53,592 nt of DNA from a virus (taxonomy: Duplodnaviria > Caudoviricetes): the IMG/VR virus record IMGVR_UViG_3300009788_000120, positions 1 through 53,592 of that record; one strand, written 5' to 3'. Below the pieces are notes generated by a model. It had not been told where the DNA came from and did not search any database. It saw nothing but the letters and a program-made list of their open reading frames with translations. The translations under genes were made by a program, and so were the position numbers. This document shows, piece after piece, positions 1,407 through 53,357 of the stretch (its first letter is position 1; each line of letters starts with the position of its first letter).

Positions 1407-1610
1407 CGCGCTAGGGCAGTCGGTCTTTGAAAACTCCCACCGATCGAGAGCCCGCGCCGGCGGGCCGTGTCGATCTACCCACAGTCGAAACCTGAAGCGC
1501 GCCGCGAGATCGCAGCGCCGGGTCGCCGCGAGGTTTGCCGCTCGCGGCCTGATGAAGACAGGCCACACGATAAATCGACCGCGCCCGCGAGGGCGAGAGG
1601 AGCGAGCAAG

Positions 1611-2018
1611 ATGAACATCACACCGTTTCCGCCGCGTAGTCGTTACGCATTTCCGCCTCACCCGCCAGAACTTGTCGAGCTGGTCTTTGCCGTTTTCGCT
1701 CGCGAAGGGCACCTGACCCAGCCCGTGATCGGCGAGACCGGCTCCGAGATTCACCCTGCGCGACCGTTGCCGCGGAGTAGCGGGAGGGGCCAGCGCAAGC
1801 TCGCCGTCATCCTCGACCGGCTCCTGGCTGGCTATTCTGATCCGGACGCTGAAGAAGCCCGTCGGCTGATTCGATACACCGACGATCCTTGCAAGTGCGG
1901 TGCGCTGACGATGACCGTCTTCGCCGGCGCCCCGGGCACCGGCCGAGCGACCGTCTGCTCGAATGGCCACACGATCGATAGCACGATTCGGGAGCTGACT
2001 CCGGAGGAGTGCCGATGA
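1611..2018 (+). CDS. hypothetical protein (first gene of left early operon; C-terminal CxC...CxxGH)
   Basis: ATG preceded by AGGAGCGAGCA; ATGA-coupled to next gene. Confidence 0.7.
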   Translation: MNITPFPPRSRYAFPPHPPELVELVFAVFAREGHLTQPVIGETGSEIHPARPLPRSSGRGQRKLAVILDRLLAGYSDPDAEEARRLIRYTDDPCKCGALTMTVFAGAPGTGRATVCSNGHTIDSTIRELTPEECR

Positions 2019-2584
2019 TCACCACGATCAACCCGGTTACCGCCCGAGCCGAGTGGCTCAACTCGCCGGCCCGTCTCGAGATCGAGGCGGACGGCGAGAC
2101 CTGGACCGTCCCCTGCCCGCCGCGGCGCCGAGCAGCGGCTCTCGAGCTTCTCGAAGACTCCTGGCCCGTCGACCTCGAGCGCGTGGAGGCGGTCGCCGAT
2201 CCCCGCTACGACTTCGATTGGGCGCGCGGCGCCCGGACGGTCGCCGAGATCGACGAGCTGGAGACGGCCGAGCGGTCCCTCTTCCTTCACCTCATCGACC
2301 TCGAGATCGAAGAGCGTGAACTCGAACGCCTCGAGCGAGAGGCCGAAAAGCACGAAGCGGCGCAGACCGAGCTGCTCAAGGGCGAGCTGCGGGGCGCCGG
2401 TCGCGATCTCGCCGGCGACTTGACGAGATGGGGCCAGGCCGAGATCGTGGCCGATGCGGCGCTCGACGTCGCGCAGGGCCTGGCCTTCACCGGACAGCTG
2501 CTCGGCCTCGTCAACACCGAGGTCGCCGCCGACATCATCTACGACGCCGCGGTCAACGAGATCGAGCGCCGCAAAGAAGCCTGA
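2015..2584 (+). CDS. hypothetical protein
   Basis: ATGA overlap, GGAGGAG RBS, typical codon usage. Confidence 0.75.
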   Translation: MITTINPVTARAEWLNSPARLEIEADGETWTVPCPPRRRAAALELLEDSWPVDLERVEAVADPRYDFDWARGARTVAEIDELETAERSLFLHLIDLEIEERELERLEREAEKHEAAQTELLKGELRGAGRDLAGDLTRWGQAEIVADAALDVAQGLAFTGQLLGLVNTEVAADIIYDAAVNEIERRKEA

Positions 2585-2656
2585 CCGTTGCAACGAGCCC
2601 TCGACACGCGAGGGCTGCATGGAGCGTTCAAGCCCCAACAACCAAGGAGCGAGCAC

Positions 2657-3442
2657 ATGAAGACAGCAACCATCCCCGAGACCACAGACAGTTTCAAGCG
2701 CCGCCAGGCCGCCATTCTCGATCTCGAGCGCATCGAGGTCGGCGACACGGTCGTCATCGAGCAGCGCTACCGCAACCAGGAGCAGCCGGAGCGCACGATC
2801 CACGTGGTCACCAAGGTGACGAAAAAGCAGATCGTGATCGACGGCGGCGGCCAGCGTTTCAACCGCGAGACCGGCGAGCGGATCGGCGGTCACCGCAGCA
2901 CGTCGACCTCGATTCGGCTCCCCCGCGAGGGAGAGATTGACGAGATCGAAGAGGACATCACCGCCAAACAGCAGGCGCTGCGCGCCGAGCGTCAGGAGAC
3001 CGCCGCCCGTCGGGCCGGTCGATTCGAGGGTCAGCTGTTCAAGGCGGCCAGGATGATCCAGAAGACCGCCGGTGAGGACGACGGCCTACAGCACGTCAGC
3101 TTTCAGCTTGATAGCCTGGGCCGCGACATCGAGAGCGCGCAGGGCCGGGTTGTTCAGATCGCCGAGTGGATGCGCGATGACCTCGAGCGTCTGACGCGCG
3201 ACCTCGAGGCGGGCCGCTGGTGCACTCAGACTGACCGCGGCGCCGATCTCGCGAAGGCCATCGCCGAGCTGCAAGCCGCGATTGAACACGGTAAGACAAC
3301 GCTCTACATGGTCAGCAAGCTCACCGGCATCGAGCGCGACGCCTTCAAGGTCGCGAGCCCGGATGAGCTTCTGCGGCCCGAAGACCGGACGCATGACGAC
3401 GTCGTCGACGAAGAAACCGCTGGCGCGAAGGTGGCGTCTTGA
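2657..3442 (+). CDS. hypothetical protein (N-terminal SH3-like beta region, C-terminal coiled coil)
   Basis: ATG preceded by AGGAGCGAGCA; IEVGDTVVIE...VTKVTKKQIVIDG..RFNRETG resembles a common phage beta-barrel motif. Confidence 0.75.
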   Translation: MKTATIPETTDSFKRRQAAILDLERIEVGDTVVIEQRYRNQEQPERTIHVVTKVTKKQIVIDGGGQRFNRETGERIGGHRSTSTSIRLPREGEIDEIEEDITAKQQALRAERQETAARRAGRFEGQLFKAARMIQKTAGEDDGLQHVSFQLDSLGRDIESAQGRVVQIAEWMRDDLERLTRDLEAGRWCTQTDRGADLAKAIAELQAAIEHGKTTLYMVSKLTGIERDAFKVASPDELLRPEDRTHDDVVDEETAGAKVAS

Positions 3443-3615
3443 GCCGGCGATCGAGCGCGCGCCGGCGCCTGCTCAACACCCTGTCGGTGATGAAATCGAT
3501 CACCGTCCGAGAGGGCGACGCCGAGCACCGTGCCGCCAAGCAACTGGAGACCGAGAGCCGCGTCACGATTCGCAGCGACCGCGACTACCAATACCTCCGG
3601 GTGGCCCTCAAATGA
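3439..3615 (+). CDS. small hypothetical protein, 58 aa
   Basis: TTGA overlap upstream and ATGA overlap downstream fill the gap exactly. Confidence 0.5.
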   Translation: MSRRSSARRRLLNTLSVMKSITVREGDAEHRAAKQLETESRVTIRSDRDYQYLRVALK

Positions 3616-3794
3616 CCGCCAGAAAGAGGAAGGGCCGGCTCCAGATCTGGTTTGGCCAGGAAGAGGAGCCGCGCATTGACCGGGTCTTGAGCTGGGAGAA
3701 GGCTCTCGAGCTGAAGACGAAATCGATGAACTGGAAGGGTACGACCGAGGCGTTTCTGACGCCGATCACCAACCACCGAGGAGCGAGCAGATGA
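3612..3794 (+). CDS. small hypothetical protein
   Basis: MTARKRKGRLQIWF...; coupled at both ends. Confidence 0.6.
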   Translation: MTARKRKGRLQIWFGQEEEPRIDRVLSWEKALELKTKSMNWKGTTEAFLTPITNHRGASR

Positions 3795-4243
3795 ACGAAG
3801 ACTTCATGAAGCGGAATCCACACGCCAAAGCAGCGGCTCTGATCGAGGGCCTGACCGAGCTGCTCATCGAGCAGATGATCGAAAACCACCACCTGCGCGA
3901 CGGCCAGAACGAGGCCGGCGCCCGCCGGGAGGCGCTCGTCGACCTCCGCCGGGCTGTGAGTCGCATCTCGGTCGCTCGTCGATCGTTCGGACCGCAGCTG
4001 TGCCTGGTGGTCTCTGACCACCTGACCGCGCTGATCGAGGCGGCGGACGCCGCGGCCTACGAGGCGGCCGGAGACGAACTCAGACTGCCTGCTGAGGACG
4101 ACTCCGAACCGCCTTTCCCTCCATCTCGCGATGCGCCGGCGCGCCTCTCCGAGGTGACCCGTCGACCGGCTCACCCTCGCGGTGAGTCGATGCTGGAGCG
4201 GGCGACCCGCCAGGACAACGATTCCGCCTTCTACAGGAGCTGA
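3791..4243 (+). CDS. hypothetical protein
   Basis: ATG preceded by AGGAGCGAGCA. Confidence 0.7.
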   Translation: MNEDFMKRNPHAKAAALIEGLTELLIEQMIENHHLRDGQNEAGARREALVDLRRAVSRISVARRSFGPQLCLVVSDHLTALIEAADAAAYEAAGDELRLPAEDDSEPPFPPSRDAPARLSEVTRRPAHPRGESMLERATRQDNDSAFYRS

Positions 4244-4245
4244 TC

Positions 4246-5470: not shown

Positions 5471-5476
5471 TCCCAG

Positions 5477-5511
5477 CCCCGACCGGGCTCTCTCCCGGTC
5501 GGGGTTTTTTT
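5477..5511 (+). terminator. rho-independent terminator
   Basis: CCCCGACCGGG-ctctct-CCCGGTCGGGG (11-bp stem) followed by T7. Confidence 0.9.
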
Positions 5512-5531
5512 GTGCGTGCTATCGTGGGTCG

Positions 5532-8351: not shown

Positions 8352-8361
8352 GGAGACGCTT

Positions 8362-9906: not shown

Positions 9907-9909
9907 GCG

Positions 9910-11932: not shown

Positions 11933-12018
11933 TATCGGAACTATACCATGGACTATGCAGAGGAAAGGGGGCCGTGGTATTCCTGGATCATGATGAATCG
12001 CAAACGGAGGAGCCGGCG

Positions 12019-20443: not shown

Positions 20444-20514
20444 TAGGCTGCTCGCCAGGTCGGTAAACCCCGGGGGCCGCACGATGGGCGGTCCAAGACA
20501 AGGAGCGATGCTTC

Positions 20515-36477: not shown

Positions 36478-36683
36478 TCGACGAATCCGATCTTGAGACT
36501 CTCGCTCCCGGCCATCGGCTCGACGGAGGTGGCCTCGATCCAATCGAAGTGGCAGACGCCGCCGTCCCAATGCTCGACAAAGTAGCGCGCGGTCGGCCCG
36601 GATCGAATCTCTACCGCGACCACAGCGGCCTCAATCTCTCCGAGGACCAATCGGACTCTCGACCCGGGCGCGATGACTTTCAT
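36474..36683 (-). CDS. small hypothetical protein
   Basis: Coupled overlaps; SH3-like, ends KIGF. Confidence 0.65.
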   Translation of the reverse strand: MKVIAPGSRVRLVLGEIEAAVVAVEIRSGPTARYFVEHWDGGVCHFDWIEATSVEPMAGSESLKIGFVE

Positions 36684-37399
36684 GACGGTCGCCTGACGCC
36701 GGCGAGGCCTGTGGCCCTCAGATCACTCGATACCGTTGCCAGGGAGGCGCCGACGTCGGCGACGATGGCCTTCAGGTCCCAATGCTCGCCCGCTAGCCAT
36801 CTCATCCGGAGCTCGGCGACCCGAGCCCGTCGGGCTCGTCGAGCCGAAGCCGCCGGGTTGTCGGTCTCCCAGGCTTGCCGCTTTGTAGCCTCGGAGGCTC
36901 CTACAGCGGCCTCCGGAGCTCGGAGTCGAACGAAATTCCTCGACACGTCGAGCCTTCGCGCTATGGCCCGCACGCTGAGCTTCTGTGACGCGAGCTCGTG
37001 CGCCCGAACGGCGAGCCCGTCATAGTCTTTGCCGTTTCTTCGCGCATTCATGATCTCGTCGGCTCGGCTCTTATCGCGGAGCACGCCGCGCCGGCGAAGG
37101 TGCACGTTGACCCATTCTTGCGACGGCGCCGGGTCTCCGGGATGAAGCTCTTTGAGCCTGGCGACGACTCCCCGACAGCTGAGCTGCTCGTCGACGTACA
37201 GCCGCTCCGCCTCGGAAACAAGACGCACCGTGTAGGTTGGGCAGGTTCCCATGTGCCCGGCCTCGCAAAGTCTCTTGTATGCCCATGTTTTCCCGACGTG
37301 GCCGGCGGCCGCGGCCCGCGACAGGGAGCGGCTTCGCTCATACTCTCGCAGCACTCGAGACCTGTGCCAGGCTCCGTATCGACGACGTCGACCCATCAC
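36680..37399 (-). CDS. multi-HTH DNA-binding protein
   Basis: SLSRAAAAGHVGKTWAYKRL, LSVRAIARRLDVSRNFV, LKAIVADVGASLATVSSDL. Confidence 0.7.
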   Translation of the reverse strand: MMGRRRRYGAWHRSRVLREYERSRSLSRAAAAGHVGKTWAYKRLCEAGHMGTCPTYTVRLVSEAERLYVDEQLSCRGVVARLKELHPGDPAPSQEWVNVHLRRRGVLRDKSRADEIMNARRNGKDYDGLAVRAHELASQKLSVRAIARRLDVSRNFVRLRAPEAAVGASEATKRQAWETDNPAASARRARRARVAELRMRWLAGEHWDLKAIVADVGASLATVSSDLRATGLAGVRRPS

Positions 37400-41004: not shown

Positions 41005-41764
41005 GTTCAATATCCTCCTCGAAGTAGAGCGCTGTCTGAGTCTTGATCAGCTCCTCGATCTGGCCGTGACTCGCTCGGCAGAGCGTTGGCCGCTCGAGGC
41101 CGGGGATCTGTTGACCCGGGAAGATGCCGACCTTCGACCCGTAGACGATATTGGTCAGAGGCGTCAGGAGCTTCTCCTCGAGGGCGGCGGCGACCAGCTG
41201 CCGGTGGAAGCCGATATCCTTGACCAGCGGAAGACCGGTTCTCCGATCGAGGTAGGCGGTAGTCACCGCCGAGGTCGCGACCTCGATGGCTTCTTCGTCC
41301 GGCAGATCATCGCCGAGCAATTCGCGCGCCGCCGGGACCTGAGACCTCACCCAGGCGGTCGACGGCGCGGCGATGAAGTCGATGCGCGGCTCCTCGGTTG
41401 ACGGCGGATCGAGGTCGAAGAGCCGCGGCAGGTAGGCGGTGACCACCGCGGTGTCTCCGGGCCCTGGAGCCTGGAGGAATCTGAACCGAGCCGAGCGCGG
41501 GATTTCGAGCTGCTCTTTCCCCCATCGGTCCGTCTCCTTCATTCGTCGGATTTTCCGCCCGGTTCGCACGTTGGCCTGAAACGCTCGGCACTCCTGAGTG
41601 GTGCCGGTGAAGGCCAGCCAAACGGGCCGGAGGCAGGTGTCGGAGGCTCCGCTACCGAGTTCCCAAAGCCGGTTGGCGATGATGTAGCCGATGAGGCGCA
41701 CGGAGAAGGCGCGGCTCTTGCCGCTGTCGTCGTTGGCCTTGGGGCAGACGATGAGGCGATCCAT
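40922..41764 (-). CDS. hypothetical protein, partner upstream of the MTase-helicase
   Basis: ATG coupled to upstream TGA; typical codon usage. Confidence 0.7.
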   Translation of the reverse strand: MDRLIVCPKANDDSGKSRAFSVRLIGYIIANRLWELGSGASDTCLRPVWLAFTGTTQECRAFQANVRTGRKIRRMKETDRWGKEQLEIPRSARFRFLQAPGPGDTAVVTAYLPRLFDLDPPSTEEPRIDFIAAPSTAWVRSQVPAARELLGDDLPDEEAIEVATSAVTTAYLDRRTGLPLVKDIGFHRQLVAAALEEKLLTPLTNIVYGSKVGIFPGQQIPGLERPTLCRASHGQIEELIKTQTALYFEEDIERGKIREPSPGRILPHPGPASQQLSLWD

Positions 41765-41994
41765 CAGCTGCTGGACCCAAAGAGAATGACCGGGGCGTCG
41801 GGATCTCTGTAGTCCGGCCAATGGTTGCGGCAACCCCATCGGCCGCATCGACGATCGGGAGCGACGTGCTGGGCCTGGACGGTCTTTCCGATGAAGAAGT
41901 AGCCTCGACAGGCCGCCCGATGCCTCTCGCTGTCGCTCTCGAGGTGATAGCGGCCGTGGCCGTCGGCGGTGATCAGACCGGCTCGAGCGGTCAT
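41764..41994 (-). CDS. small hypothetical protein (CxxxxCxxH)
   Basis: GAGGA RBS; MTARAG...; appears fused to the upstream ORF only through a probable indel. Confidence 0.55.
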   Translation of the reverse strand: MTARAGLITADGHGRYHLESDSERHRAACRGYFFIGKTVQAQHVAPDRRCGRWGCRNHWPDYRDPDAPVILFGSSS

Positions 41995-42210
41995 AGGATG
42001 TTCCTCAGATCGATCAGACGCGGCCCGCCCGGCCGATCCGTCTCGGTCCAGCTCACGATCGAATTGAGCGGAGTCGGCCTGGTTGTGCACGGCGATGCGG
42101 TGGATGAAGACGTCGCACTCGATGCCCGAGGCGGTGACTCCTTTCCAGTGGCGGACGGGCACGCCGTCGATCTCCGTGGTGTTGCTGGTCGATATGATCT
42201 GGATCTCCAT
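41991..42210 (-). CDS. small hypothetical protein with probable 1-nt insertion near 42046
   Basis: AAGGAG RBS; removing one base gives ...DRELTETDRPGGPRLIDLRNIL* with an ATGA overlap to the next gene. Confidence 0.5.
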
Positions 42211-42220
42211 TCCGCTCTCC

Positions 42221-42568
42221 TTATTCTCGTGATTCCGCAGTGTTGCTCGAGGGGATCAACTCGGCCTCTACCTCCATCGGACCCGGTGGCAACGCCGGCG
42301 CTGATAGCTGCTGCCAGCCGCGGTATTGCTCTCCGCTCTTCGACGCGCCGTAGCGATCGACGGCCCGGAGGGCGGTGAGCGTCAGGCTCAGGGCCCGGAG
42401 GTTTGCCGTCCAGGAGTCGTAGGTATCGCAGGGCATCGCGATCTCGCCGTGTTTCCCGTTGAAGAAGAGAACCACGCCCGGGGATTTCGGCCTGGCGATC
42501 TCATGTTCCTCGATCTCGAGCTTGATCTTTACGTCGTAAACCTCTATTTGCTTGAGCCTGGTCTTCAT
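42221..42568 (-). CDS. conserved phage hypothetical protein
   Basis: PGVVLFF...MPCDTY...NLRALSLTL.ALRAVDRYG, a motif often found N-terminal to J-domains in phages. Confidence 0.65.
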   Translation of the reverse strand: MKTRLKQIEVYDVKIKLEIEEHEIARPKSPGVVLFFNGKHGEIAMPCDTYDSWTANLRALSLTLTALRAVDRYGASKSGEQYRGWQQLSAPALPPGPMEVEAELIPSSNTAESRE

Positions 42569-42762
42569 CGGATTCTCCGGCTGACCCTCCAAAGCGGAAT
42601 CGGCTCCTTTTGGCCGACGGGGACGAAGACCCGGACGCCGTGCTGGCGGTAGCTGGCGCCGGCCGCCTCGTACTCTTTTCCGTCGAGGGTCACGACCACT
42701 GCTCCCCGGGGGAGGACGTCGTCAGGTCCACGGTCAGTTCTCATCTCTGTCAGCGTGTCCAT
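42565..42762 (-). CDS. small hypothetical protein
   Basis: Preceded by AGGAGCGAGC-ATG. Confidence 0.65.
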   Translation of the reverse strand: MDTLTEMRTDRGPDDVLPRGAVVVTLDGKEYEAAGASYRQHGVRVFVPVGQKEPIPLWRVSRRIR

Positions 42763-42779
42763 GCTCGCTCCTCTCTATG

Positions 42780-42819
42780 GTGAAAGGCGCTCGGCTGGTC
42801 TCCGACGCCGAGCGCCCGG
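42780..42819 (-). terminator. possible weak terminator/processing hairpin
   Basis: GGCGCTCGGC...GCCGAGCGCC 10-bp stem followed by TTTCAC on the minus strand. Confidence 0.4.
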
Positions 42820-42938
42820 GTGGCGGGAGTTCGGGACGGTGGGAAGATCCCTCGGCGACCGGAGAGGGCGTGTCAGGCGCCCGCCGTCGAGGGTTGGATT
42901 CAACGCTCCAAGATTCCTCCACTCGAGGCGTTGAGTTT

Positions 42939-43634
42939 TCACGCCACTCCTCCGAGCAGCGATCCTTGACGCGGCGGCCGAGGCGGGTCGCCGGTTTTCT
43001 TGCGCTTCGGCGTCGGCTCGACGTCGGCGCCGTAGTGGATCATGAGCTCCCGCATCCGCCAGTAGCGCAGGCGAGAGCCGCGGCCGACGTCCTGGTGAAC
43101 GCGCACCGCGACGTGCCGGGCATAGGACAGGGGCATCGAGCGCATCTTGGCGCTCGCCTTGTACGCCTCCCAGAGACCGATTCGTAGGAAATGGCACTCG
43201 GCCTCCGAGCCGTCCGGCAACTCGACTAGCCAGAGAACGCCGGCGACGTTGCCCGCCGCCGCGGCCTTGAGCAAGCCGGCCACCTGATGATCCTTGACCT
43301 GGTCGAAGGCCAGGCGCGCGGCCAGGTCGCCGGTCTTGGCCGCGAACCTTCCCTGCGTCCGCTTGCACTCGAGGGCGAAGACAATTTGCGGGGAGATGCC
43401 GAGCGGCGCCGAGGGACAAAAACAGCCGGCGGCCGGCGCCGTGACTAGGAAGTCAAACGGGTATTTCGGGCTGAATCGCGTGTTGCTACCCGGGGCCTCG
43501 TTGTCACCGCCGAACCACGTTGCGGGATCCGGGAACTTGTAGCCCCAGACGGTCGCCGACCGGACGGGGGAGGCGAGGGGCGGCAGAGACCGTCCCACCT
43601 CCTCCTGAAATATTCCTCCGGGGCCCTTGGCCAT
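42939..43634 (-). CDS. RecU-like Holliday junction resolvase (PD-(D/E)xK)
   Basis: YKFPDP, PFDFL, FALECKRT, QVKDHQV..L, GNVAGVLW. Confidence 0.75.
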   Translation of the reverse strand: MAKGPGGIFQEEVGRSLPPLASPVRSATVWGYKFPDPATWFGGDNEAPGSNTRFSPKYPFDFLVTAPAAGCFCPSAPLGISPQIVFALECKRTQGRFAAKTGDLAARLAFDQVKDHQVAGLLKAAAAGNVAGVLWLVELPDGSEAECHFLRIGLWEAYKASAKMRSMPLSYARHVAVRVHQDVGRGSRLRYWRMRELMIHYGADVEPTPKRKKTGDPPRPPRQGSLLGGVA

Positions 43635-43638
43635 CTCT

Positions 43639-45168
43639 CTACTCCGGCGGCTCGAGCGGCACGCCCGGATCAGTGACCCTGGCCGCCCTGGCCTTGTCGA
43701 TCGCCTCGATGCAGGTCTTCCGATGCTTGCCGGCGAAGGCTCCGGGCTTCCCGGTCTCCGTCTCCGTCAGCTTGCGCAGGGCCGGCAACGACATGCCCGT
43801 GAGGTTCTCTTCCGGCGCGGGCGCGGGCGCGGGCATCGGCTTGTGTTCCTCGAGAAGAGCCTTCTCTTCATCGGTCAGGACATTGGGGGGCACCTCTTCG
43901 TCGCCGGCGATCGGCTCGCCATCCTGGTCGACGTACTCCGCGTCGATCTCATCGCCGTCGGCCAACTCGATCTCGGCGTAGGCCTCGAGGACGGCCGGCG
44001 GTACAGCGCCTACGTTTCCTTGGGTGAAGGACATCACCTTGAGACGCTCTTCGGAGGCCCACTCAGCAATGTCCTCGACCGGAACGGCGAAGCCCAGATC
44101 CAGGAGCCGATCGGCGAGCACGGAGGGATGGAGCGTCATCGAGTAGGCGTCCAGACCCTCCGGGAGAGGCTCTCCGGTGGCGGCAAAGTGCCGAATCTCC
44201 TCCCAGGGCACCATCGTCAGGTCCGCCAAGACGGTGGGCCGGACGTGAAAGCAGCGGCTCAGGAGCTGAGTCGAGAGCTCATGGTCATCCAGAGCCGGCT
44301 CGGCGTCATCCGGGCCGATGATCGAGATCGAGGCCAGTCCATCGGACTCGGGCGCCGGCGGTACGTCGACCTCTGACCCCAGAGCCTGGCGGCGCTGGGC
44401 GTCGGCCCAGGACACGGCGCGATCACGGAACTCGGAGCCCCACTCGGCGACGGCCTCCGCCGCGGCGTAGTAGCCGAGAGCGGCCAGCAGCAGCGCCAGC
44501 GCGGAGTCGTCACCGAGGTCGAGCTCCAGGTCCGAGAGGATCTCCCGGCGCATCGACGGGACGCGATCATCGACTGGGGGTGCGGTCTCTGGGTCTTCTC
44601 CGCCGAATTTCCCGGCGGCCTCCGGCATGCCCGGCAGAGCCGCTACCAACCGCGGTGTCTTCGGCGTCTTGCCGGCGATCATCCCTTCGCACCACGCCGC
44701 GATCTCTTTGCGCTCCGAGGCGGTGAGACCGTCGATCGCCTCAACGCCCGGCCATGCGCGGTTCGGATCCGCCTCCCAAAGCAGGGAGACGATCGCCGCG
44801 GCTGGCGTTTCGTCGGACGATTCCGGCTCGGCCCGGCGGCCGGCGTCGTTACGATCGACGGTGGTTTTGAAGAAGCCCTCCACCATCTCGCGCAGCTCCC
44901 CGTGGGTTACGGCGTGGTCGTGCTCGCTGCCGGGAAACAGCGGGCCGGTGACCGTCGCCTCCTGATCTTCATCGGCCTGGAGATAGGCGGCGAGCAGCCG
45001 GCGCGCGCAGTGTGCAGCGGCGGCAATCGCCGTCTGCATGAAGGTCTTAAACGAGCTCATCCAGAGCGTGGGAAGAGGAAGATCGAAGGCTTCGACCTCC
45101 GTCTCCAGGCCGATGACCGTGTCGGTCAGGGCCATGATTTCCTGCAACGTGTTCTTCTTCTTCGCCAT
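43639..45168 (-). CDS. acidic hypothetical protein
   Basis: GGAGG RBS before MAKKKNTL; long acidic ORF; C-terminal helix-extension-helix-like MSLPALRKL...HRKTCIEAI. Confidence 0.75.
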   Translation of the reverse strand: MAKKKNTLQEIMALTDTVIGLETEVEAFDLPLPTLWMSSFKTFMQTAIAAAAHCARRLLAAYLQADEDQEATVTGPLFPGSEHDHAVTHGELREMVEGFFKTTVDRNDAGRRAEPESSDETPAAAIVSLLWEADPNRAWPGVEAIDGLTASERKEIAAWCEGMIAGKTPKTPRLVAALPGMPEAAGKFGGEDPETAPPVDDRVPSMRREILSDLELDLGDDSALALLLAALGYYAAAEAVAEWGSEFRDRAVSWADAQRRQALGSEVDVPPAPESDGLASISIIGPDDAEPALDDHELSTQLLSRCFHVRPTVLADLTMVPWEEIRHFAATGEPLPEGLDAYSMTLHPSVLADRLLDLGFAVPVEDIAEWASEERLKVMSFTQGNVGAVPPAVLEAYAEIELADGDEIDAEYVDQDGEPIAGDEEVPPNVLTDEEKALLEEHKPMPAPAPAPEENLTGMSLPALRKLTETETGKPGAFAGKHRKTCIEAIDKARAARVTDPGVPLEPPE

Positions 45169-45190
45169 TCTCGAATCCTCCAAAAGGTGG

Positions 45191-45225
45191 TTGACTTGCG
45201 CGTCGGCCGTCGACCGTGCTACGCT
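45191..45225 (+). promoter_or_regulatory. putative promoter for the antisense small RNA
   Basis: TTGACTTGCGC (45191-45201), then extended -10 TG-C-TACGCT (45217-45225); 18-bp spacer from TTGCGC. Confidence 0.55.
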
Positions 45226-45230
45226 TCCTC

Positions 45231-45334
45231 TGACGACGGGCCTCTCCGGTGCTTTGCTCGCTCCTGGTGTCAGGCTCCTGTGTTCTCGATCCGATCCGGC
45301 CTCGCGGCGCAATCCGCGAGGCCGGTGTAGTTTT
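45231..45334 (+). ncRNA. putative trans-acting anti-RBS small RNA (~100 nt)
   Basis: Intergenic, antisense to the flanking genes. The 5' stem-loop carries UUUGCUCGCUCCU, complementary to the AGGAGCGAGCA RBS motif; the 3' end is a 12-bp hairpin plus UGUAGUUUU. Confidence 0.6.
45296..45334 (+). terminator. intrinsic terminator-like hairpin oriented for plus-strand transcription
   Basis: CCGGCCTCGCGG-cgcaat-CCGCGAGGCCGG; T-rich tail on the plus side only. Confidence 0.6.
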
Positions 45335-46596
45335 CAGGCGGCGGCCGTCAGGATTCTCTTCGTCTCGGTCACCGCCCGCTCTTTGACGGCCGGCGGTTGA
45401 TCTGAGTGCGAGATCTCGACCCAGGACCGGGCGGGCATCTCGATGACCCGGCCCGCCAGCTCCTGGAGCTCGACGGCCCGATCGTAGTTTTTGACGTCGT
45501 TCGAGGCCCGGGTGATCGCGGAGGTGAAGCCCCACTGGCTGAGGTTGCCGCCCCGGATCAAGTGCGTCAGGACGTCGTTGCTTTCCGGCTCGGTGAGGCC
45601 GAGCTGCTGGCGAGCGGTCTCCACCATGGCGGGCGGTTGGGCGACGATCGGCAGCTGGTCGGCAACGCTCATCCTGGCGCAGACCCGGGCGAAGGCGCCT
45701 TGGTCCATCGCGTGACGGAGCGCATCTCGTAGCTTGAGCAGGAAAGTCTTGTTCATGCTCTGCTGGGTGTCGGAGGCGTACTTGACCTCGCCGAAGACGT
45801 CGACCTCTTTCCCTTTCTGGCGGCCACCCGAGTGCCAGCCGCCGAGCCCGCGGCCCACGGTCATGCCGTTGGAGCAGACCAGAGTATGGATCATCGGCCG
45901 GAGCCAGACGGCGCCGTCCCCGATCTCGGAATTCTTCAGCAGGATGGCGGCGGAAACCGCCTCGCCGACCGCCACCTCGCCCTGGATGCCGGGAAAGACC
46001 ACCTGGAGGTAGAGCTTGTTGCTCGTGACCTCGCAGGATTTGATGTCGATCTCCTCGGTTCGTTCGGAGAGGACGCTGAGCGCCGTCCCCAGCACCACGT
46101 CGTTATCCAGCACTCGGTAGGAGCTCGAGAGGAAGGCTCGCGCGCGACCGTCGAGGGTGCGGACCATTCGCTCTTCGGGCTGACGCCGGAAGTGGGTGTT
46201 GACCGTCTCGCAGAGGAAATCCGGCATCTCGGCCTTGAGCCGCTTGACGTAGGTCATCGGGATCTTCAGGCGCCCGGCGACCTGGGTGAGGGCGTGGGTC
46301 GTGAGGCCGAAGACCTCACCGTGACCCGCGGTGAGCCCGATGCCGCTGGATCTCGTGTCCATCACCTCGAGCTTGAGGGCGCCGCCCGTCGGCACGAGGG
46401 CCTGTTGGGATCGGGTGATCAGCTGCGGCAAGCTGCCGTTGCCCGCGGCGATTGCCTGGGGGTTGGCGATCGGCTTGGGCGGCGGTTCTTCGTACCGTAG
46501 CGCGAGAAGACGGGTGTCGCCCTTGAAATCGCGCTTCTCTTCTGCCTGGCGTTGGACCTCCGCGGACAGGTTTTGGAGGCTTCGTCCCTGGATCAT
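45334..46596 (-). CDS. DUF932-like protein
   Basis: RMVRTLDGRARAFLSSSYRVLDN, LKNSEIGDG, LVCSNGM, LSQWGFTSAITRAS. Confidence 0.8.
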   Translation of the reverse strand: MIQGRSLQNLSAEVQRQAEEKRDFKGDTRLLALRYEEPPPKPIANPQAIAAGNGSLPQLITRSQQALVPTGGALKLEVMDTRSSGIGLTAGHGEVFGLTTHALTQVAGRLKIPMTYVKRLKAEMPDFLCETVNTHFRRQPEERMVRTLDGRARAFLSSSYRVLDNDVVLGTALSVLSERTEEIDIKSCEVTSNKLYLQVVFPGIQGEVAVGEAVSAAILLKNSEIGDGAVWLRPMIHTLVCSNGMTVGRGLGGWHSGGRQKGKEVDVFGEVKYASDTQQSMNKTFLLKLRDALRHAMDQGAFARVCARMSVADQLPIVAQPPAMVETARQQLGLTEPESNDVLTHLIRGGNLSQWGFTSAITRASNDVKNYDRAVELQELAGRVIEMPARSWVEISHSDQPPAVKERAVTETKRILTAAA

Positions 46597-46650
46597 GCTC
46601 GCTCCTTGTCTGAGGTGGCCGCTCGGTGCATCCGGCGACCCCGTGAGACT

Positions 46651-46698
46651 CGATTCTACTTTGGGGCTTTACAAATGTAAAGAGGCAAAGTAAGATCG
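46651..46698. promoter_or_regulatory. symmetric divergent promoter pair with central palindrome (genetic switch)
   Basis: Rightward TTTACA-17-TAAGAT; leftward TTTACA-17-TAGAAT; core CTTTACA-AA-TGTAAAG. Confidence 0.85.
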
Positions 46699-46720
46699 GT
46701 GACGAAAGGAGGTCAGCACG

Positions 46721-47271: not shown

Positions 47272-47290
47272 AACACAAGGAGCGAGCAAC

Positions 47291-49396
47291 ATGCACATCG
47301 TCCCCCCGAAGACCGCGTCCCTTCCCTTCGAGATCGAAAACGTCGGCCCGCGCATCGGCCCAGAGGGTCAGCCGAGTCGGCTCACCGGGACTCTTCCTCC
47401 CGGCGTCCTCGAGTTTCTCGGCGGCATGGCCGCCGGCAAGAGCCATCACATTTGGGCGCTGTTGGCGGCCGCCGGCGCCGACATTCCCGACCAATTCATC
47501 GAGGTGACCCGCGGGGCCGACGTAGGCCGCGTGCGACTCGGCCCCGACTCTCTGATCATCAAGGCCGGCGAGATGCCGGAGTCCGGGAAGCGCGGACTCG
47601 CGGCGCCGGCCGAGCCGGTCGACGTCAGTCCGCTCTCCGTGCTCTTCCGTCCGGACGCCGTCGACCCGGCGGTCAGCCGGAAGCTACGTATCACCGCGTT
47701 CTTGAAACTCGCTCGGCTCGAGCCGACCCGCGAGCGGCTGGCGAAGCTCTGCGCGGGCTCGGCCGAGCTGCTCGAGTGGATCGTGGCCAAGGTCGCCGGC
47801 GACAAGAAGATCTCAACGCTCGACGTCGCGCTCAAGAGGCTGACGACCGAGGCTCACCGCCTCGCCCGAGAAGATCACGAATCCAAGATCAAGGCCGCGG
47901 CCAACGATCGCATCCGCCTGGAGGGCCGCGTCGAGCAGCTGCTGAGGGAGGCGGCCGCGCCATACGGCATCACTTGGTCGATCGAGCCGGCGGAGGAAGA
48001 CGACGACGAGCAGGCTGCGGCCAGGGCTGCGGCCGTCAACCAGGCTCGCGAGCTGCTGTCCGTCGAGCCCGGCAAGGCGCCGGCCGACCTGGAGGCCGCC
48101 CGTCGAGAGTTCGGCCAGCTCGAGGCTCGCCGAGAGGCTCGAATAGCCTTTGACGCTCTACTCGCGGAGGTGGGCGAGACCGAAGAGGTCATCGACACGG
48201 CGGGCGCTGAGGCCGAGGTCGAGCGCCGACAATCCGCGGCCCAGGCGACCCGGGCGGCCGCCGATCAGGCGAACAGCCAGCGGGCGAAGGCCGACGCCTC
48301 GTTGCAGATTGCGGCCGCGGCCGTGAAGACGGCTCGAGAGCGACACGCCGAGACCGAGGCGAAAATCGACGGAATCTCTGAGGATCAGGCTGCTGAAGAA
48401 TTGTTGGCTCAGGAGCTGGTGAGGAAGCTAGCGGAGTTTCGATCGCGGATCGAGGCTCTTGAAGCCGCTCAGGCGAGTGCCTACGAGGAAGAGAGCGAGC
48501 GGAGCATCGCGGTTGCGACGGCTGAGGATGCAGCGAAACTCCGCCAGGCGGTCGCCGCGGCGGCGGTCTCCGACGCCGAAGCGGTCGAGCTCGCCTCAAC
48601 CGAAGCGGCTCGCGAAGCCGAGGGCGCCCGGATCGAGCTCGCCCGGCTCCAGAAGGCGCAGGCGTCCCAGGCTGAGCGTCAGCTCATCTTGTCGAAGAAG
48701 CCGGCCGACGTCGGCCCCGAAGAGAACGAGGTTGATAACGCGGCCAACGAGCTCGACAAACTGGCCATCGCCCACCGCCTCTTCGGGCTACGCTCGACGT
48801 TCGTCGATACCGATCGGGAGTACTTGGCGGCGGTCGAGCTCGAGCGCGTCGAGCGTCAGGCGTCCGACGCGCTGCGTGACGTCGCTCGTAACGCCCACCG
48901 GCGGCTCTACAAGCTGCTGACGGAAGAGGGCGGCATCCAGGGAGTCGAGATCACGGAGGAGGGCGATATCCTGATCGTTGACGAGTACGAGGGCGAGGAG
49001 CGCAAGCGCGACGTCGCGGACCTGGCGCACGTGTCGGAGGGCGAGAGAATGTCGACCTTCCTGGACATGGCGCAGCCCTACTTATCGGGCACCGGGATTC
49101 CGGTGATCCACTTGGAGGGCCGCTACTGGCGAGACCTGGATGAGACGCGCAAGCGAGAGCTCGCGGCGAAGGCCTCGAGGCGCGGCCAGTGCATCCTGAC
49201 CGAGGTACCGACCGACGAGGACGACACCCGGCCCTGCTCGATCGAGACCGGTAAGTTGATCATGGTCGAACGCGAGCCGGGAGTCTGGACCGCGGACCAA
49301 CGCAAACTCGGCGGCGGAGCCGACATCGAGGGATACTTTCAGTCCCGGGTCTACTACCGGCGGTTGACGGCGCCGGCCGAGGAGTCGACGTCATGA
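47291..49396 (+). CDS. Rad50/SbcC-like coiled-coil ATPase
   Basis: FEIENVGP, Walker A GGMAAGKS, long Ala/Glu coiled coil, signature-like VSEGER, degenerate Walker B VIHLEG; AGGAGCGAGCA RBS. Confidence 0.7.
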   Translation: MHIVPPKTASLPFEIENVGPRIGPEGQPSRLTGTLPPGVLEFLGGMAAGKSHHIWALLAAAGADIPDQFIEVTRGADVGRVRLGPDSLIIKAGEMPESGKRGLAAPAEPVDVSPLSVLFRPDAVDPAVSRKLRITAFLKLARLEPTRERLAKLCAGSAELLEWIVAKVAGDKKISTLDVALKRLTTEAHRLAREDHESKIKAAANDRIRLEGRVEQLLREAAAPYGITWSIEPAEEDDDEQAAARAAAVNQARELLSVEPGKAPADLEAARREFGQLEARREARIAFDALLAEVGETEEVIDTAGAEAEVERRQSAAQATRAAADQANSQRAKADASLQIAAAAVKTARERHAETEAKIDGISEDQAAEELLAQELVRKLAEFRSRIEALEAAQASAYEEESERSIAVATAEDAAKLRQAVAAAAVSDAEAVELASTEAAREAEGARIELARLQKAQASQAERQLILSKKPADVGPEENEVDNAANELDKLAIAHRLFGLRSTFVDTDREYLAAVELERVERQASDALRDVARNAHRRLYKLLTEEGGIQGVEITEEGDILIVDEYEGEERKRDVADLAHVSEGERMSTFLDMAQPYLSGTGIPVIHLEGRYWRDLDETRKRELAAKASRRGQCILTEVPTDEDDTRPCSIETGKLIMVEREPGVWTADQRKLGGGADIEGYFQSRVYYRRLTAPAEESTS

Positions 49397-49833
49397 CGAT
49401 CAACGACCACCTGGCCGGTCTCCGGTCCCTGGCCTTGAGGCCGGCCGTTACCCTCGACCAGCTCGCGCAAGCGATCCTCGCGGATCCTCCGACCCCTCCG
49501 ACCCCGCAGAGCTGCGAGCCGGTCATCGCCACGGACGAGGGCTCGCCCAACAACCTGACCGTCTTCATTCGGCAGCTGCAATATAAGAAGGCGGTGTCCT
49601 GTAGCGCTTGCGGGGCCTTCGCCCGGCGCCATTGGACGATGATCCTGCCCTTTCGAGCTGCTCTCCCAGACGGCTCGGCGTCGCCCATGATCCCGGGTCT
49701 CTGGCCGGTCTGCGAGCGCCACTCGATGCAGCCCGACCCCGTCATCTTCGACCAGGCCCTGGCCTCTTTCAAGCACCTGGCGAGGCTCTACGCCGAGGAT
49801 CTCGAGCGTCAACAGCTCGGGGAGAAGAACTGA
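49393..49833 (+). CDS. hypothetical protein (CxxC...CxxH)
   Basis: GAGGAG RBS; ATGA overlap. Confidence 0.65.
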   Translation: MTINDHLAGLRSLALRPAVTLDQLAQAILADPPTPPTPQSCEPVIATDEGSPNNLTVFIRQLQYKKAVSCSACGAFARRHWTMILPFRAALPDGSASPMIPGLWPVCERHSMQPDPVIFDQALASFKHLARLYAEDLERQQLGEKN

Positions 49834-49835
49834 TC

Positions 49836-50216
49836 ATGTGGGAAAAACAGAACCTGGTGACTCAGTCCAAAGGCGATCAGTGGAAGTGCTCACATTGCGG
49901 CTATAAATTCTGGTCTTGTCGGTTGGGAGCCAACGACTCGACCTGCCCGAAGTGCGATTGCTTAGCCGGTCTCGAGCACCCCGTTGAGATGTCCGGGAAG
50001 CCGCTCGGCGGCTGGTACGCGCCGGCCGCGGAGAAGGCCTACGACTCTCTGGTCGAGCTTCGGGCGGCGGAGAGTTCGAGACCGTCATGCGCGGGCTGCC
50101 GAGGCCCGTTGGTCATCGTTCCTCGGACGAGGCATCCGCTCTCCGACCTCTGGAGACTTGAGCGGCAAGATGGCCTGGCGCTGATGTGCTGCGCCGGCGA
50201 CTGCAAGGAGCCTTAG
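49836..50216 (+). CDS. zinc-ribbon protein
   Basis: WKCSHCG...CPKCD, CAGCRG...CCAGDC. Confidence 0.65.
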   Translation: MWEKQNLVTQSKGDQWKCSHCGYKFWSCRLGANDSTCPKCDCLAGLEHPVEMSGKPLGGWYAPAAEKAYDSLVELRAAESSRPSCAGCRGPLVIVPRTRHPLSDLWRLERQDGLALMCCAGDCKEP

Positions 50217-50449
50217 GGGGTGCGCGGCCTGAACTCTACGCAGCGGCGGGCCGGTGCGCTCTGTGCGGCGGAGACATGAAGAAGAGGCTCGGGTTGTCGA
50301 ATAGCGCGACCCTGGAGGACGACGGACCTGGACGTCTGCCGCGGCTGTCAAATGTTCCACGGCTGCAAGGGCCATCGAGATCTCGACCGGCCGGAGCTGA
50401 TCGTGGAGAGCGTGGATTGGGATCGAGAACTTAGCAAAGGAGCGAGCAA

Positions 50450-51052
50450 ATGAACATCGACGAGGTACTCAGAAAACATAGGATTTGGATTCAAGATGGA
50501 GACGGCGGCGAGAGGGCCAACCTCAGCGGGGCCAACCTCAGCGGGGCCAACCTCAGCGGGGCCTACCTCAGCCGGGCCAACCTCAGCGGGGCCTACCTCA
50601 GCCGGGCCTACCTCAGCGGGGCCAACCTCAGCGGGGCCAACCTCAGCGGGTCCGACCTCCGCGGGGCCGACCTCAGCCGGGCCTACCTCCGCGGGGCCAA
50701 CCTCCGCGGGGCCAACCTCAGCGGGGCCGACCTCAGCGGGGCCGACCTCAGCGGGGCCGACCTCAGCGGGGCCTACCGACACGAAGGCTTGGCGCTCGAC
50801 GGCCGTGTTGACTGCGGCTTATCGCTGGGATACTTCTGGTTGGCCTATACCGCAAATCGCCACGCTTATCTAGAGATCGGGTGCCATAAAAACCGTCGCA
50901 CGGTTCGACAGTGGCGCCGAGATCTTCCGGGTATGACTCGGGGGTACTTTGCCTCAGACCGGAAGGAGGGCGAGGCAACGATCAGGGCTCTGCTCGATTT
51001 CGTCGAGTCAACCCTTGGCGTCTCAATTCCCAGCGAGGAGAGCTCTTCATGA
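50450..51052 (+). CDS. pentapeptide repeat protein
   Basis: HRIW...[13 protein letters not shown]..., 17 A(N/D/Y)LxG-type units, C-terminal LEIGCH; AGGAGCGAGCA RBS. Confidence 0.92.
50516..50770 (+). repeat. 17 x 15-bp tandem repeat (consensus GCCAACCTCAGCGGG)
   Basis: Directly visible; encodes the pentapeptide repeats. Confidence 0.95.
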
Positions 51053-51417: not shown

Positions 51418-51447
51418 GTAGAGCGAGGCGGAAAAGGAGCGAGCAAG

Positions 51448-51723
51448 ATGAAGCCGACGAGTTTTCCTCAGTCGAACGACACGCTGACCGGCGGCCCTGG
51501 CGAGAATTACGGGGTCGATCAGGAGACGGTGCCCGACCTCGAGATCTATCGAGGCACCGGCGAGGTCATATCCTGCTGGTCTTTTGACGATTGGTGGGAG
51601 CGGCTCAGCGTGCTCTTCACCGGCCGGGTCTTTCTCCGCGTCGCGGGCAAAACCCATCCGCCACTCTGGCTCGCCGGCGGCCGGGTGTTCAACTCGGGCG
51701 GTCGCAAGAAGGGTGACCGATGA
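51448..51723 (+). CDS. conserved phage hypothetical protein
   Basis: MKP..FPQSN...VISCWSFD.WERL.VLFTGRVFL.V.G.THPPL; AGGAGCGAGCA RBS. Confidence 0.75.
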   Translation: MKPTSFPQSNDTLTGGPGENYGVDQETVPDLEIYRGTGEVISCWSFDDWWERLSVLFTGRVFLRVAGKTHPPLWLAGGRVFNSGGRKKGDR

Positions 51724-52811
51724 CCGCTCCGCGGGCTCTCCCAAAAACCCGGCCCGAGCTGAGCCCGGAGCACGCCCAGGCCCGCGCGGGGAACATCGGA
51801 GGCTCGGAGGTGGGCTCCCTCTTCGGATGGGGCTTCGAGACCAAGCTCGAGCTCTACAACCGCAAGACCGCCGAGCTCGCCGGCGTCGCGCCGGCGGCCG
51901 TCGATCGACCGACGCACTCAGAGCCGCGGCGGCCCGGAGCTCTCGATCCCCTGACCAGGGGATCGGTGCTGGAGACGGCGGTCGCCGAGCTCTTCGCCAT
52001 TGAGACCCAGCTCGACGTCTACCCGCTGGTCGATGCCTACTGGCCGCATCCGACAATCGACGGCATGGGCGCCTCGCCTGACTTCGAGTTGGTGCACCCG
52101 GATTGGGGCCCTGGGATTCTGTCGATCAAGACGGCGATCTTCTGGATCTATCGCCGGTGGCAGGCTCTGTCCGAAGCGTTACACGGCGCGGGCGCGGCGG
52201 TTGAGCCGTCGATGGGCTATCAGCTCCAGGTGCAGCAGGAGCTTGCCTGCTCCCCGGGCTCGGCGGTCGAGCCCGGCGCCCCGCACACCTGGGGCTGCAT
52301 CGCCACCCTCGTCGGCCTCGAGCGGCTCGAGGTCTTCCCGGCGCCGGCCAACGACCTAGAGGTGATCGGCGCTTACCGTCCGAACGAGCAGCTGGTCGGT
52401 CAGATGGCTGTCGAGATCGATCGATTCTGGGATCGCGTGCGGCGAGCCGAGCCGCCGCCCGCCGACTTCGAGCGCGATTGGGAGACGCTGGCCGCGATGC
52501 AAACGAAGCTTGGCGTCGGCGTGCACCTGGACCTCCGCCGGGACGAGGACTTCAACCGGGCGGGCAATGCCTACGTGATGCACCGCGACGAGGAGACCTA
52601 CAGCCGCAAGCTCAAGGAGCTGGCCGGCGCCGAGCTCCGAGAGATCAGCGTGCGACAGGAGACGCCGGCCGCCATCTACGGCCAGGACTTCACTCTCAAG
52701 AACATCCAGGTCAAGGGCTCGAGGTGCCCGGGTTGCCGGCGGCCGCTGCGCAAGCCCTACATCATGACCAGGATCGACAAGAACAAGGTCGACAAGAACA
52801 AGGGGGCTTGA
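51720..52811 (+). CDS. YqaJ/lambda-exonuclease-family recombination nuclease
   Basis: RAGNIGGSEV, RGSVLE, GASPDF, GILSIKT, YQLQVQQEL, FWDRV. Confidence 0.85.
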   Translation: MTAPRALPKTRPELSPEHAQARAGNIGGSEVGSLFGWGFETKLELYNRKTAELAGVAPAAVDRPTHSEPRRPGALDPLTRGSVLETAVAELFAIETQLDVYPLVDAYWPHPTIDGMGASPDFELVHPDWGPGILSIKTAIFWIYRRWQALSEALHGAGAAVEPSMGYQLQVQQELACSPGSAVEPGAPHTWGCIATLVGLERLEVFPAPANDLEVIGAYRPNEQLVGQMAVEIDRFWDRVRRAEPPPADFERDWETLAAMQTKLGVGVHLDLRRDEDFNRAGNAYVMHRDEETYSRKLKELAGAELREISVRQETPAAIYGQDFTLKNIQVKGSRCPGCRRPLRKPYIMTRIDKNKVDKNKGA

Positions 52812-53050
52812 TGAGAAGCGTGAAGCGAAAAGTCGACCCTCGCAAAGAGGAGCTTGCGCTCGAGCGCATAGAGCCCGATCTGGTCTCAGCGATCGACGCT
52901 ATGAAGAGTGTCGGGAAGATGACCTGGGAGCTCGACGAGCACCCGGCATCGACTCCGGCCCTTTCCGAAGGCGACCGGGTCAGCATGCCGCCGATCGGGA
53001 AGCACACCGAGCTGGGAGGCTACGCTCGGGGGAGCCGTGGCCGCGACTGA
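52811..53050 (+). CDS. hypothetical protein
   Basis: TGATG coupling. Confidence 0.55.
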   Translation: MRSVKRKVDPRKEELALERIEPDLVSAIDAMKSVGKMTWELDEHPASTPALSEGDRVSMPPIGKHTELGGYARGSRGRD

Positions 53051-53357
53051 GGCGGAGGCACGTCAGGTGGAAGTGTGGAAAAAATCTCGCGCCGGTGAAG
53101 AAAACGGCGCTATAATCGGAAACGCCAGACCGGTCGGAGGGGAAGCCGAGCGCCTATTCCGGGCTCTCGCATTCTTCCGCCGGCTCTGGAGCGAGCTCGA
53201 CGGGCTGCAAAAGGGTCTGACCCCAGACCCGGATTTTGACGGCCTGGTCAACGACGTCAGGGTGCTCGACTACGAGACCCTGATCAGCCGATTGCGGGAG
53301 TCTCCCGCGGTCGAATCAACCACCACCCCTGGATCAGGGGTAGACAGGAGCGAGTGA
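53037..53357 (+). CDS. hypothetical protein
   Basis: GGGGAG RBS; TGATG coupling downstream. Confidence 0.5.
   Translation: MAATEAEARQVEVWKKSRAGEENGAIIGNARPVGGEAERLFRALAFFRRLWSELDGLQKGLTPDPDFDGLVNDVRVLDYETLISRLRESPAVESTTTPGSGVDRSE

Follow-up and report, generated by a model that had tools for sequence, protein, structure and literature searches.

An invariant eleven-base word serves as the ribosome-binding site of eight unrelated non-virion genes in an uncultivated tailed phage

The stretch of DNA analysed here, which we call the window, is the whole of the IMG/VR virus record IMGVR_UViG_3300009788_000120 (Caudoviricetes), a record of the linear class with 53,592 bp, a G+C content of ~65% and a CheckV completeness of 65%. 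It contains nine exact copies of the 11-mer AGGAGCGAGCA, in which a Shine-Dalgarno core, AGGAG, is followed by an invariant CGAGCA that fills the spacer before the ATG. The word is a start-associated sequence, and it forms the ribosome-binding site of eight unrelated genes that lie outside the virion module. Genes were called with a codon-usage model trained on the long open reading frames (ORFs) of the window, and 58 starts were curated.

Six of the copies lie on the plus strand. The first (1598-1608) ends 2 nt before ATG 1611 of gene 1611-2018, which is preceded by a 481-nt stretch of low coding potential and encodes a protein of 135 aa without family match. The second (2645-2655) is found 1 nt before ATG 2657 of gene 2657-3442, whose 261-aa product gives a weak Pfam match to Phage_ProQ_C_like (29.5 bits, cut-off 27). 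The third (3779-3789), 1 nt before ATG 3791 of gene 3791-4243 (150 aa), is the only copy placed within the 3' end of an upstream ORF (3612-3794, ATGA overlap). Near the other end of the window, a copy at 47278-47288 precedes by 2 nt ATG 47291 of gene 47291-49396, encoding 701 aa without family match, and a copy at 50438-50448 precedes by 1 nt ATG 50450 of gene 50450-51052, which encodes a pentapeptide-repeat protein and follows a 616-nt stretch of low coding potential. The copy at 51435-51445 stands 2 nt before ATG 51448 of gene 51448-51723 (91 aa), the first of a chain of overlapping genes that contains a YqaJ/RecE-like exonuclease (51720-52811). On the minus strand, the last A of the copies at 42762-42772 and 46596-46606 is itself the A of the start codons ATG 42762 (gene 42565-42762, 65 aa) and ATG 46596 (gene 45334-46596, 420 aa, DUF932 / phrog_1362). 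The DUF932 gene is the first in a leftward operon and begins ~40 nt downstream of a predicted sigma-70-like promoter. The eight tagged proteins comprise a weakly ProQ_C-like protein, a pentapeptide-repeat protein, a DUF932 protein and five proteins without annotated function, one of which matches only a PHROG of unknown function. An origin of the repeat by gene duplication was rejected, since comparing the tagged genes in pairs revealed no paralogues (best E 0.05).

The third minus-strand copy, at 45255-45265, is an orphan, placed in the 165 nt that separate the DUF932 gene from gene 43639-45168. It has no ATG, GTG or TTG within 15 nt and is located 87 nt upstream of ATG 45168, which has a GGAGG of its own. 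The stretch around it, from TTG 45312 to ATG 45168, scores as non-coding, and a 12-bp G+C-rich hairpin ends ~30 nt before it. This hairpin (45296-45325) directly follows the DUF932 stop and was called as a terminator on the plus strand only, opposite to the reading direction of the genes around it.

The sequence-only reading of this DNA, on which our analysis follows up, had listed eight exact copies of the motif. All eight are present, but the listing was incomplete because the orphan copy had been missed. The reading had further estimated that well under one copy should arise by chance, and this holds. The chance expectation is 0.07 copies in 100 dinucleotide shuffles, with a shuffle maximum of 1, and 0.038-0.137 copies when the exact count is set against Markov backgrounds of orders 0-5 (P(≥9) ≤ 4e-14). 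Eight of the nine copies are followed by an ATG 0-2 nt later or share their last A with an ATG, for which the background frequency of 0.035 gives P(≥8 of 9) = 1.8e-11. The AGGAG of the tagged genes is positioned 5-8 nt before the ATG, and all nine copies are oriented in the direction of local transcription units, i.e. of the local genes.

The motif has sharp edges in sequence space. When up to two mismatches are allowed, 28 matches are found against 34 expected, and the sole copy with one mismatch (20612) lies inside a gene. Because near-variants occur at chance level and the lone one-mismatch copy is intragenic, AGGAGCGAGCA is a sharply defined word and not the peak of a degenerate family. 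The spacer had been described as fixed, and it is: CGAGCA follows nine of the 164 AGGAG on both strands, the next commonest hexamer follows three, and there is not a single substitution over 54 spacer positions (nine copies of six bases). Outside the 11-12 nt the flanks are not conserved, and no shared words above shuffled controls were found either upstream or downstream. Two variants had also been reported and are as described. One, AGGAGCGAGTG at 53346-53356 (+), agrees in 9 of 11 bases and stands directly before ATG 53357; the other, AGGAGCGATGC at 20501-20511 (+), agrees in the first 8 bases and is separated by 3 nt from ATG 20515 of the tail assembly chaperone. No other virion gene has a sequence resembling the motif. 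These two variants have only AGGAGCGA(G) in common.

The genome layout shows which genes are tagged. The virion module (6918-33002, plus strand), assigned with PHROGs, comprises the large terminase, portal, head morphogenesis, scaffold, major head protein, tail proteins, chaperone, tape measure and fibres, and contains no exact copy. A leftward block (36004-46596) encodes a Dam-like methyltransferase, a 1204-aa methyltransferase/helicase, a resolvase-like protein and the DUF932 protein. A rightward non-virion block runs from 46721 off the end of the record, resumes at its start and continues to a strong terminator-like hairpin (5475-5506, plus strand; 13 pairs and a T run) before the packaging genes. 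Between the two non-virion blocks, at 46653-46696, overlapping divergent sigma-70-like promoters are predicted from consensus matches only, with TTTACA-17-TAGAAT leftward and TTTACA-17-TAAGAT rightward. The restriction of the motif to non-structural genes, as claimed from the letters, is supported with modest statistics: 8 of 38 non-virion and 0 of 20 virion curated starts are tagged (one-sided P = 0.026). Likewise, head and tail genes had been said to use ordinary variable spacers, and this is borne out, as AGGAG-type sites with varied spacers are found at virion genes and also at seven other non-virion genes (4246, 33970, 35235, 42210, 46721, 49393 and 51049). The description of the tags as heading chains of coupled genes is a fair one. 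Among the non-virion starts, 7 of 15 uncoupled but only 1 of 23 translationally coupled starts are tagged (P = 0.003), and in six of eight cases the start of the next gene overlaps the stop of the tagged gene, so that a block at the tag could spread along the gene chain.

Some further features of the window were noted. The low-coding stretches upstream of tagged genes, 1130-1610 (~480 nt) and 49834-50449 (616 nt), gave no Rfam match; promoters or non-coding RNA may be located there. The G+C content falls to 0.50-0.57 around 49790-49880 and 50375-50420. Another over-represented word, ACCTCAGCGGGGCC, with ten exact copies at 50520-50773 spaced by multiples of 15 nt, was rejected as unrelated to the motif, because it is the 15-nt coding repeat of the pentapeptide-repeat gene (Pfam Pentapeptide, E 5.6e-55). 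The near-perfect DNA uniformity of these 15-nt repeats suggests a recent expansion. In the leftward block, a 308-aa ORF with strong coding signal (40922-41848, minus strand), not among the genes called at first, overlaps by ~85 nt with the start annotated for the methyltransferase/helicase ORF (37396-41010), so that the true start of the latter is probably further downstream. After the tail assembly chaperone (20515-21015) and directly before the tape measure there is an overlapping ORF (21084-21323), in the usual location of a programmed frameshift product. At the start of the record (1-825), C-rich sequence of low complexity (CCGCCCCCACCCCCACCCCC..) is found together with an ORF that is open at its 5' end and encodes a PKD domain (E 1.2e-06). 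The coding signal of this ORF changes frame at ~241-360, which could reflect a frameshift, an assembly error or a repeat region.

We tentatively propose, at a little less than an even chance of being right, that a sequence-specific factor recognizes the invariant extension of AGGAGCGAGCA on the mRNA and controls the tagged set together, by occlusion or by cleavage. By analogy, such a factor could be a phage or host protein resembling T4 RegA, a repressor that occludes its site. Alternatively, it could resemble T4 RegB acting with ribosomal protein S1, where a nuclease cuts inside GGAG and the 3' flank sets the specificity. The factor would switch the tagged genes and the genes translationally coupled to them on or off together, and the orphan copy would either bring the leader of the downstream 509-aa gene under the same control or act as a decoy. 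As summarized in a review (PMC3014915), the strong RegB/S1 cleavage sites of T4 read GG*AGRAYARAA and are located in the initiation regions of early, not late, genes. They have in common with the window's motif an 11-nt layout with GGAG and a conserved 3' extension into the spacer. In T4 the sites mark early-gene initiation regions and a gene set that is inactivated post-transcriptionally. The extension itself differs, being CGAGCA in the window and A-rich RAYARAA in T4, and no RegB homologue was detected among 40 ORFs. RegA, according to the same review, represses ~30 mRNAs through unstructured sites overlapping or preceding the AUG (PMC3014915). The RegA operators of T4 and RB69, so far as they are described there, resemble the window's copies as unstructured sites at or directly before the AUG, and in the case of RegA one protein acts on many early mRNAs. 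However, RegA sites are A+U-rich and without sharp consensus, whereas the window's word is G+C-rich and exact, and no RegA homologue was detected.

Instead of being read on the mRNA, AGGAGCGAGCA could act as DNA, as an asymmetric operator of a DNA-binding regulator that blocks or modulates transcription. The model for this would be the stoperators of Cluster A mycobacteriophages, which are described as 13-bp asymmetric sites oriented with transcription and present in many copies per genome (PMC4351075, PMC3203893). Stoperators occur across early as well as late regions and are the binding sites of the phage repressor. The window's motif is likewise short (~11 bp), asymmetric, multi-copy and always oriented with transcription, as stoperators are described (PMC4351075); its orphan copy is intergenic and off-start, and ORF 36680-37396 gives a weak helix-turn-helix match below the Pfam cut-off. 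But stoperators, in those descriptions, act on DNA and are not locked to starts, whereas eight of the nine copies in the window are no more than 3 nt away from an ATG and place AGGAG where a Shine-Dalgarno sequence is expected, and none is found in the 26-kb virion module. A transcriptional roadblock needs neither the ATG nor the Shine-Dalgarno spacing. The copy at 46606 is placed ~40 nt downstream of the predicted promoter and not over it, and Pfam and PHROGs searches of the window proteins detected no integrase or repressor family. We regard a DNA operator as very improbable.

A more serious competitor to the proposed mRNA-binding factor requires no dedicated reader at all. In this account, which we consider somewhat unlikely but which is the main rival, the 11-mer is the best initiation region the phage has and is reused wherever strong independent initiation is wanted. 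The predicted folding of the initiation regions is weaker at tagged starts than at the other 50 curated starts (median dG −6.0 versus −10.3 kcal/mol, P = 0.004), the predicted unpaired probability is higher (0.52 versus 0.43, P = 0.017), and T accounts for only 3% of the bases at −20..−1 compared with 14% at other starts. A strong Shine-Dalgarno core at ideal spacing in an unstructured, U-poor context is just what such reuse would produce. The tags are moreover found at uncoupled starts, which need their own ribosome loading, and searches of the window yielded no factor. No common secondary structure was found around the sites; in the author's reading of the folds, ~7 of the 9 sites have a G+C-rich hairpin 10-30 nt upstream, and the sequences of these hairpins are unrelated. 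What a purely cis-acting optimum explains less well is the exactness of the word. Many spacers would be equally open, yet the same six bases are found in nine copies with no near-variants. At the virion genes and at the seven other non-virion genes listed above, the spacer after AGGAG varies. The orphan copy, in addition, has no gene to initiate.

Several results weigh against a factor that reads the word. The lower structure of the tagged initiation regions is also predicted by the cis-only optimum and fits it equally well. All eight tagged starts are ATG, but this does not differ significantly from the 45 of 58 curated starts overall (P = 0.13). No relatives close enough for comparing orthologous starts were found in the DNA, IMG/VR or protein searches. 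A search for antisense partners with G-U pairs allowed gave 19 matches against 14 expected, of which 9 are the motif's own complement, so that no partner was found, and the window contains no Rfam family or tRNA. Among 40 ORF translations, Pfam detected no RegA, RegB, S21, CsrA, Hfq or other RNA-binding family apart from the weak ProQ_C-like match. Within the window no repressor, nuclease or antisense RNA acting on the motif was identified, a search limited by the incompleteness of the record and by small ORFs without family matches. The ProQ_C-like protein (2657-3442), itself tagged, is the only annotated candidate, and it has 16 weak homologues among 1.84 billion representatives. Its structure was predicted with a local distance difference test score (pLDDT) of 86. 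Foldseek returned nothing from the PDB at E ≤ 0.001 for this model, and VIA-align returned only generic helical-bundle rows (Z ≤ 9.3, residues 121-226), so that no RNA-binding fold was matched in comparisons that hardly bear on the N-terminal beta domain. The candidacy of this protein as the factor thus gains no support from the predicted model.

Bacterial genomes, so far as sampled, do not carry the word as a general feature. For the virion proteins, the closest cultured relatives by tblastn are those of phages of Pseudomonas, Xanthomonas, Caulobacter, Dinoroseobacter, Vibrio and others at ~30-35% identity, with at most 37% identity to any cultured phage. A scan with the tape measure gave nine loci in genome contigs, of Zhongshania (50% over the conserved N-terminal part), an alphaproteobacterial metagenome-assembled genome (44%) and Bacillus (37-40%), and these matches do not decide the host. 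As a surrogate for the host, we used 151 Pseudomonadota genomes, the phylum of the alphaproteobacterial genome. Together they contain 122 copies of AGGAGCGAGCA; 70 of the 151 have at least one copy and the maximum is 8 in a 6-Mb genome. This amounts to at most ~1.3 copies per Mb, compared with 168 per Mb in the window, and a control word read backwards gave counts of similar size in the same genomes. We take it that CGAGCA does not extend Shine-Dalgarno pairing with the conserved bacterial 16S 3' tail, which was assumed here in its general form in place of the host's own 16S. A first pattern scan of IMG/VR found at least 106 stretches with 1-2 copies each; the complete scan for AGGAGCGAGCA followed by ATGAA gave 68 stretches, 63 with one copy, 5 with two and none with more, and three whole records that carry the word contain 2, 2 and 3 copies.

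The phage is a singleton without close relatives. No near-DNA matches were found in the phage collection, and single-protein scans of IMG/VR with the DUF932 protein, the 701-aa protein, the major head protein and the exonuclease revealed no close relatives. The best protein relatives among 5.8 billion clusters reach at most 41% identity for DUF932 and at most 31% for the portal. With a profile of DUF932 relatives, 80 IMG/VR loci were fetched. As to whether most DUF932 phages reuse the DUF932 ribosome site, copy numbers of the upstream 9-mer equalled those of an in-gene control. A de novo scan for tags looked for 10-mers containing a Shine-Dalgarno core, with at least four non-tandem copies and an ATG after at least 80% of them. 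It flagged 12 of 186 foreign phage loci but only 1 of 186 in a reversed-sequence control. Thus the reuse of a word before ATG is not rare, which favours the cis-only account. Several of the flagged words are of the GAAAGGAG type and could be explained by plain extended pairing with Firmicute-type 16S tails. Five loci (L149, L132, L030, L016 and L033) show conserved bases 3' of GGAG beyond what rRNA pairing explains.

L149 and L132 belong to the records G153 and G154, in which counterparts of the window's virion genes and of DUF932 are found (24-37% identity). G153 contains 11 copies of ACGGAGACCA, nine before an ATG and two without a start after them. The nine lie in the first 8.3 kb with an ATG after 2 nt and small hairpins upstream, and the homologues of the virion genes are located at ~22-37 kb. 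Over C1:60-8260 of G153 (L149; also L204) the nine copies extend to ~25 nt (..CAYCACCAACGGAGACCACCATGAA..), and each follows a small hairpin whose stem sequence differs between copies (e.g. tgccacgtcggca, tggcgctttgcca and tgtcgattcggca). The G153 sites look like a start-associated sequence plus an upstream element conserved in structure. G154 contains 12 copies of AGGAGAACC, ten with an ATG after 3-5 nt, one with a GTG and one without a start; ten copies are found at 27-41 kb outside the homologues of the virion genes and one among them. At C1:27137-41316 of this record (L132), which has direct terminal repeats, ACAGGAGAACC(gac)ATG precedes at least ten genes of the non-virion region, including DUF932. 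A tag stands directly before the DUF932 gene in the window, G154 and L033, with a different word each time, and in G153 this gene is flanked by two tagged genes. Private start-associated words were also found at L016:6070-8541 (GGAGTTGAAGAATGAA, four exact and two near copies) and at L033:4074-8491 (TAGGAGCTAG, four exact copies and near copies, one of them before the DUF932 homologue).

A separate group of IMG/VR loci with a G+C content of 44-48% (L030, L215 and L230) has ribosome sites of the AAGGAGCGAA type. L030 contains 11 near-copies, and in L215 and L230 AGGAGCGA occurs 7-8 times. That AGGAGCGA is common to these loci and to the window's word is probably due to the loci having been fetched through that word. 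L030, which was fetched by a chance match to that word, is a different case, because its sites each follow a conserved promoter-like block (..ACTATAGG..TAAACAA).

Because G153 and G154 carry different words of the same design, we conclude that the design recurs in a broad lineage while the word is private. This bears on the cis-only optimum, for a ribosomal optimum shared by distant relatives would predict convergence on one word and not the fixation of different words, though their hosts may differ. The relatives also bear on a further explanation, in which AGGAGCGAGCA would be a recombination linker, a microhomology at gene boundaries that permits cassette swapping among related phages with the aid of a RecE-like exonuclease. 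The motif does stand at gene boundaries in a mosaic non-virion region, the phage encodes a YqaJ/RecE-like exonuclease, and the conserved block in G153 is longer, at ~25-40 nt. Recombination, though, has no need of a fixed orientation or of a Shine-Dalgarno-to-ATG register, no related phage with the same word is found in the IMG/VR counts given above, and eleven bases are very short for homology-driven exchange. Such a linker is more improbable still than a DNA operator.

To return to the motif itself, its closest known counterparts are the start-associated sequences (SAS) of Cluster K mycobacteriophages and of Cluster EF phages. The Cluster K SAS, GGGATAGGAGCCC, is described as an asymmetric 13-bp sequence with AGGAG in 11-19 copies (Pope et al. 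2011, PMC3203893). It is located 3-7 bp before starts, of which 80 of 93 are ATG, is confined to the non-structural half of the genome in a single orientation, and has conserved positions that 16S pairing does not explain (PMC3203893). About half of the sites have an upstream inverted repeat (ESAS), and some are not at gene starts (PMC3203893). The function of the SAS was stated to be unknown in 2011 (PMC3203893), and its role is still called unverified in a 2025 survey of 188 Cluster K genomes (PMC12699233). Cluster EF Microbacterium phages are reported to have an unrelated 13-mer of the SAS kind, GGGAAAGGACCCC, in about ten copies, all with an upstream ESAS centred on GTAGAG (PMC7302621).

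By these published descriptions, the window's motif and the Cluster K SAS are both short asymmetric AGGAG-containing repeats at the ribosome-binding position of non-structural genes, in one orientation, with an occasional off-start copy. Both tag unrelated gene families. Conserved positions that 16S pairing does not explain, as described for Cluster K, may also be present in the window, to judge from the assumed tail. They differ in length (11 nt in the window, 13 nt in Cluster K) and in that the window's motif is conserved only 3' of AGGAG and not on both sides. No ESAS-like upstream inverted repeat is found in the window, and only AGGAGC is common with GGGATAGGAGCCC. The window's phage, in addition, is an uncultivated singleton, and its virion proteins are ~30% identical to those of phages of Proteobacteria and others. 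The Cluster EF motif resembles that of the window in its approximately ten copies at ribosome-binding positions, conserved far beyond ordinary sites, in a lineage unrelated to Cluster K; it differs in its GTAGAG-centred ESAS, which is absent from the window, and has only AGGA in common via GGGAAAGGACCCC. Of the hallmarks of an SAS, the window's motif thus shows the number of near-identical repeats, the Shine-Dalgarno core at starts, the restriction to non-structural genes and the single orientation, and lacks the ESAS and a match to the published consensus. Since motifs of the SAS kind have been described since 2011, the novelty of the finding is lowered accordingly.

In conclusion, two distant relatives of the phage and a few further uncultivated phages have tags of this design that differ in sequence, which suggests that the phenomenon extends beyond two actinophage clusters and that each lineage has a word of its own. 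We speculate, granting that the chance is small, that phages of this broad lineage each have a private address code, in which a Shine-Dalgarno-based word of 10-15 nt tags an early non-virion mRNA regulon and co-evolves with a phage-specific RNA-binding repressor or nuclease. For the window, this factor may be among the ORFs without family match or in the missing part of the genome. Private words are what would be expected if a dedicated factor reads them. If such a code is real, the actinophage SAS, the window's motif and the words in G153, G154, L016 and L033 would represent one widespread mode of post-transcriptional timing. The window's motif is a simpler test case, as a single exact 11-mer that lacks an upstream element and precedes eight genes not related to one another, in a phage with no relationship to the actinophage clusters. 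If the factors exist, they would provide compact orthogonal translation switches and would explain the timing of early genes in phages without elaborate transcription cascades. If there is no factor, the motif is still an illustration of the strong canalisation that a phage can impose on its initiation regions.

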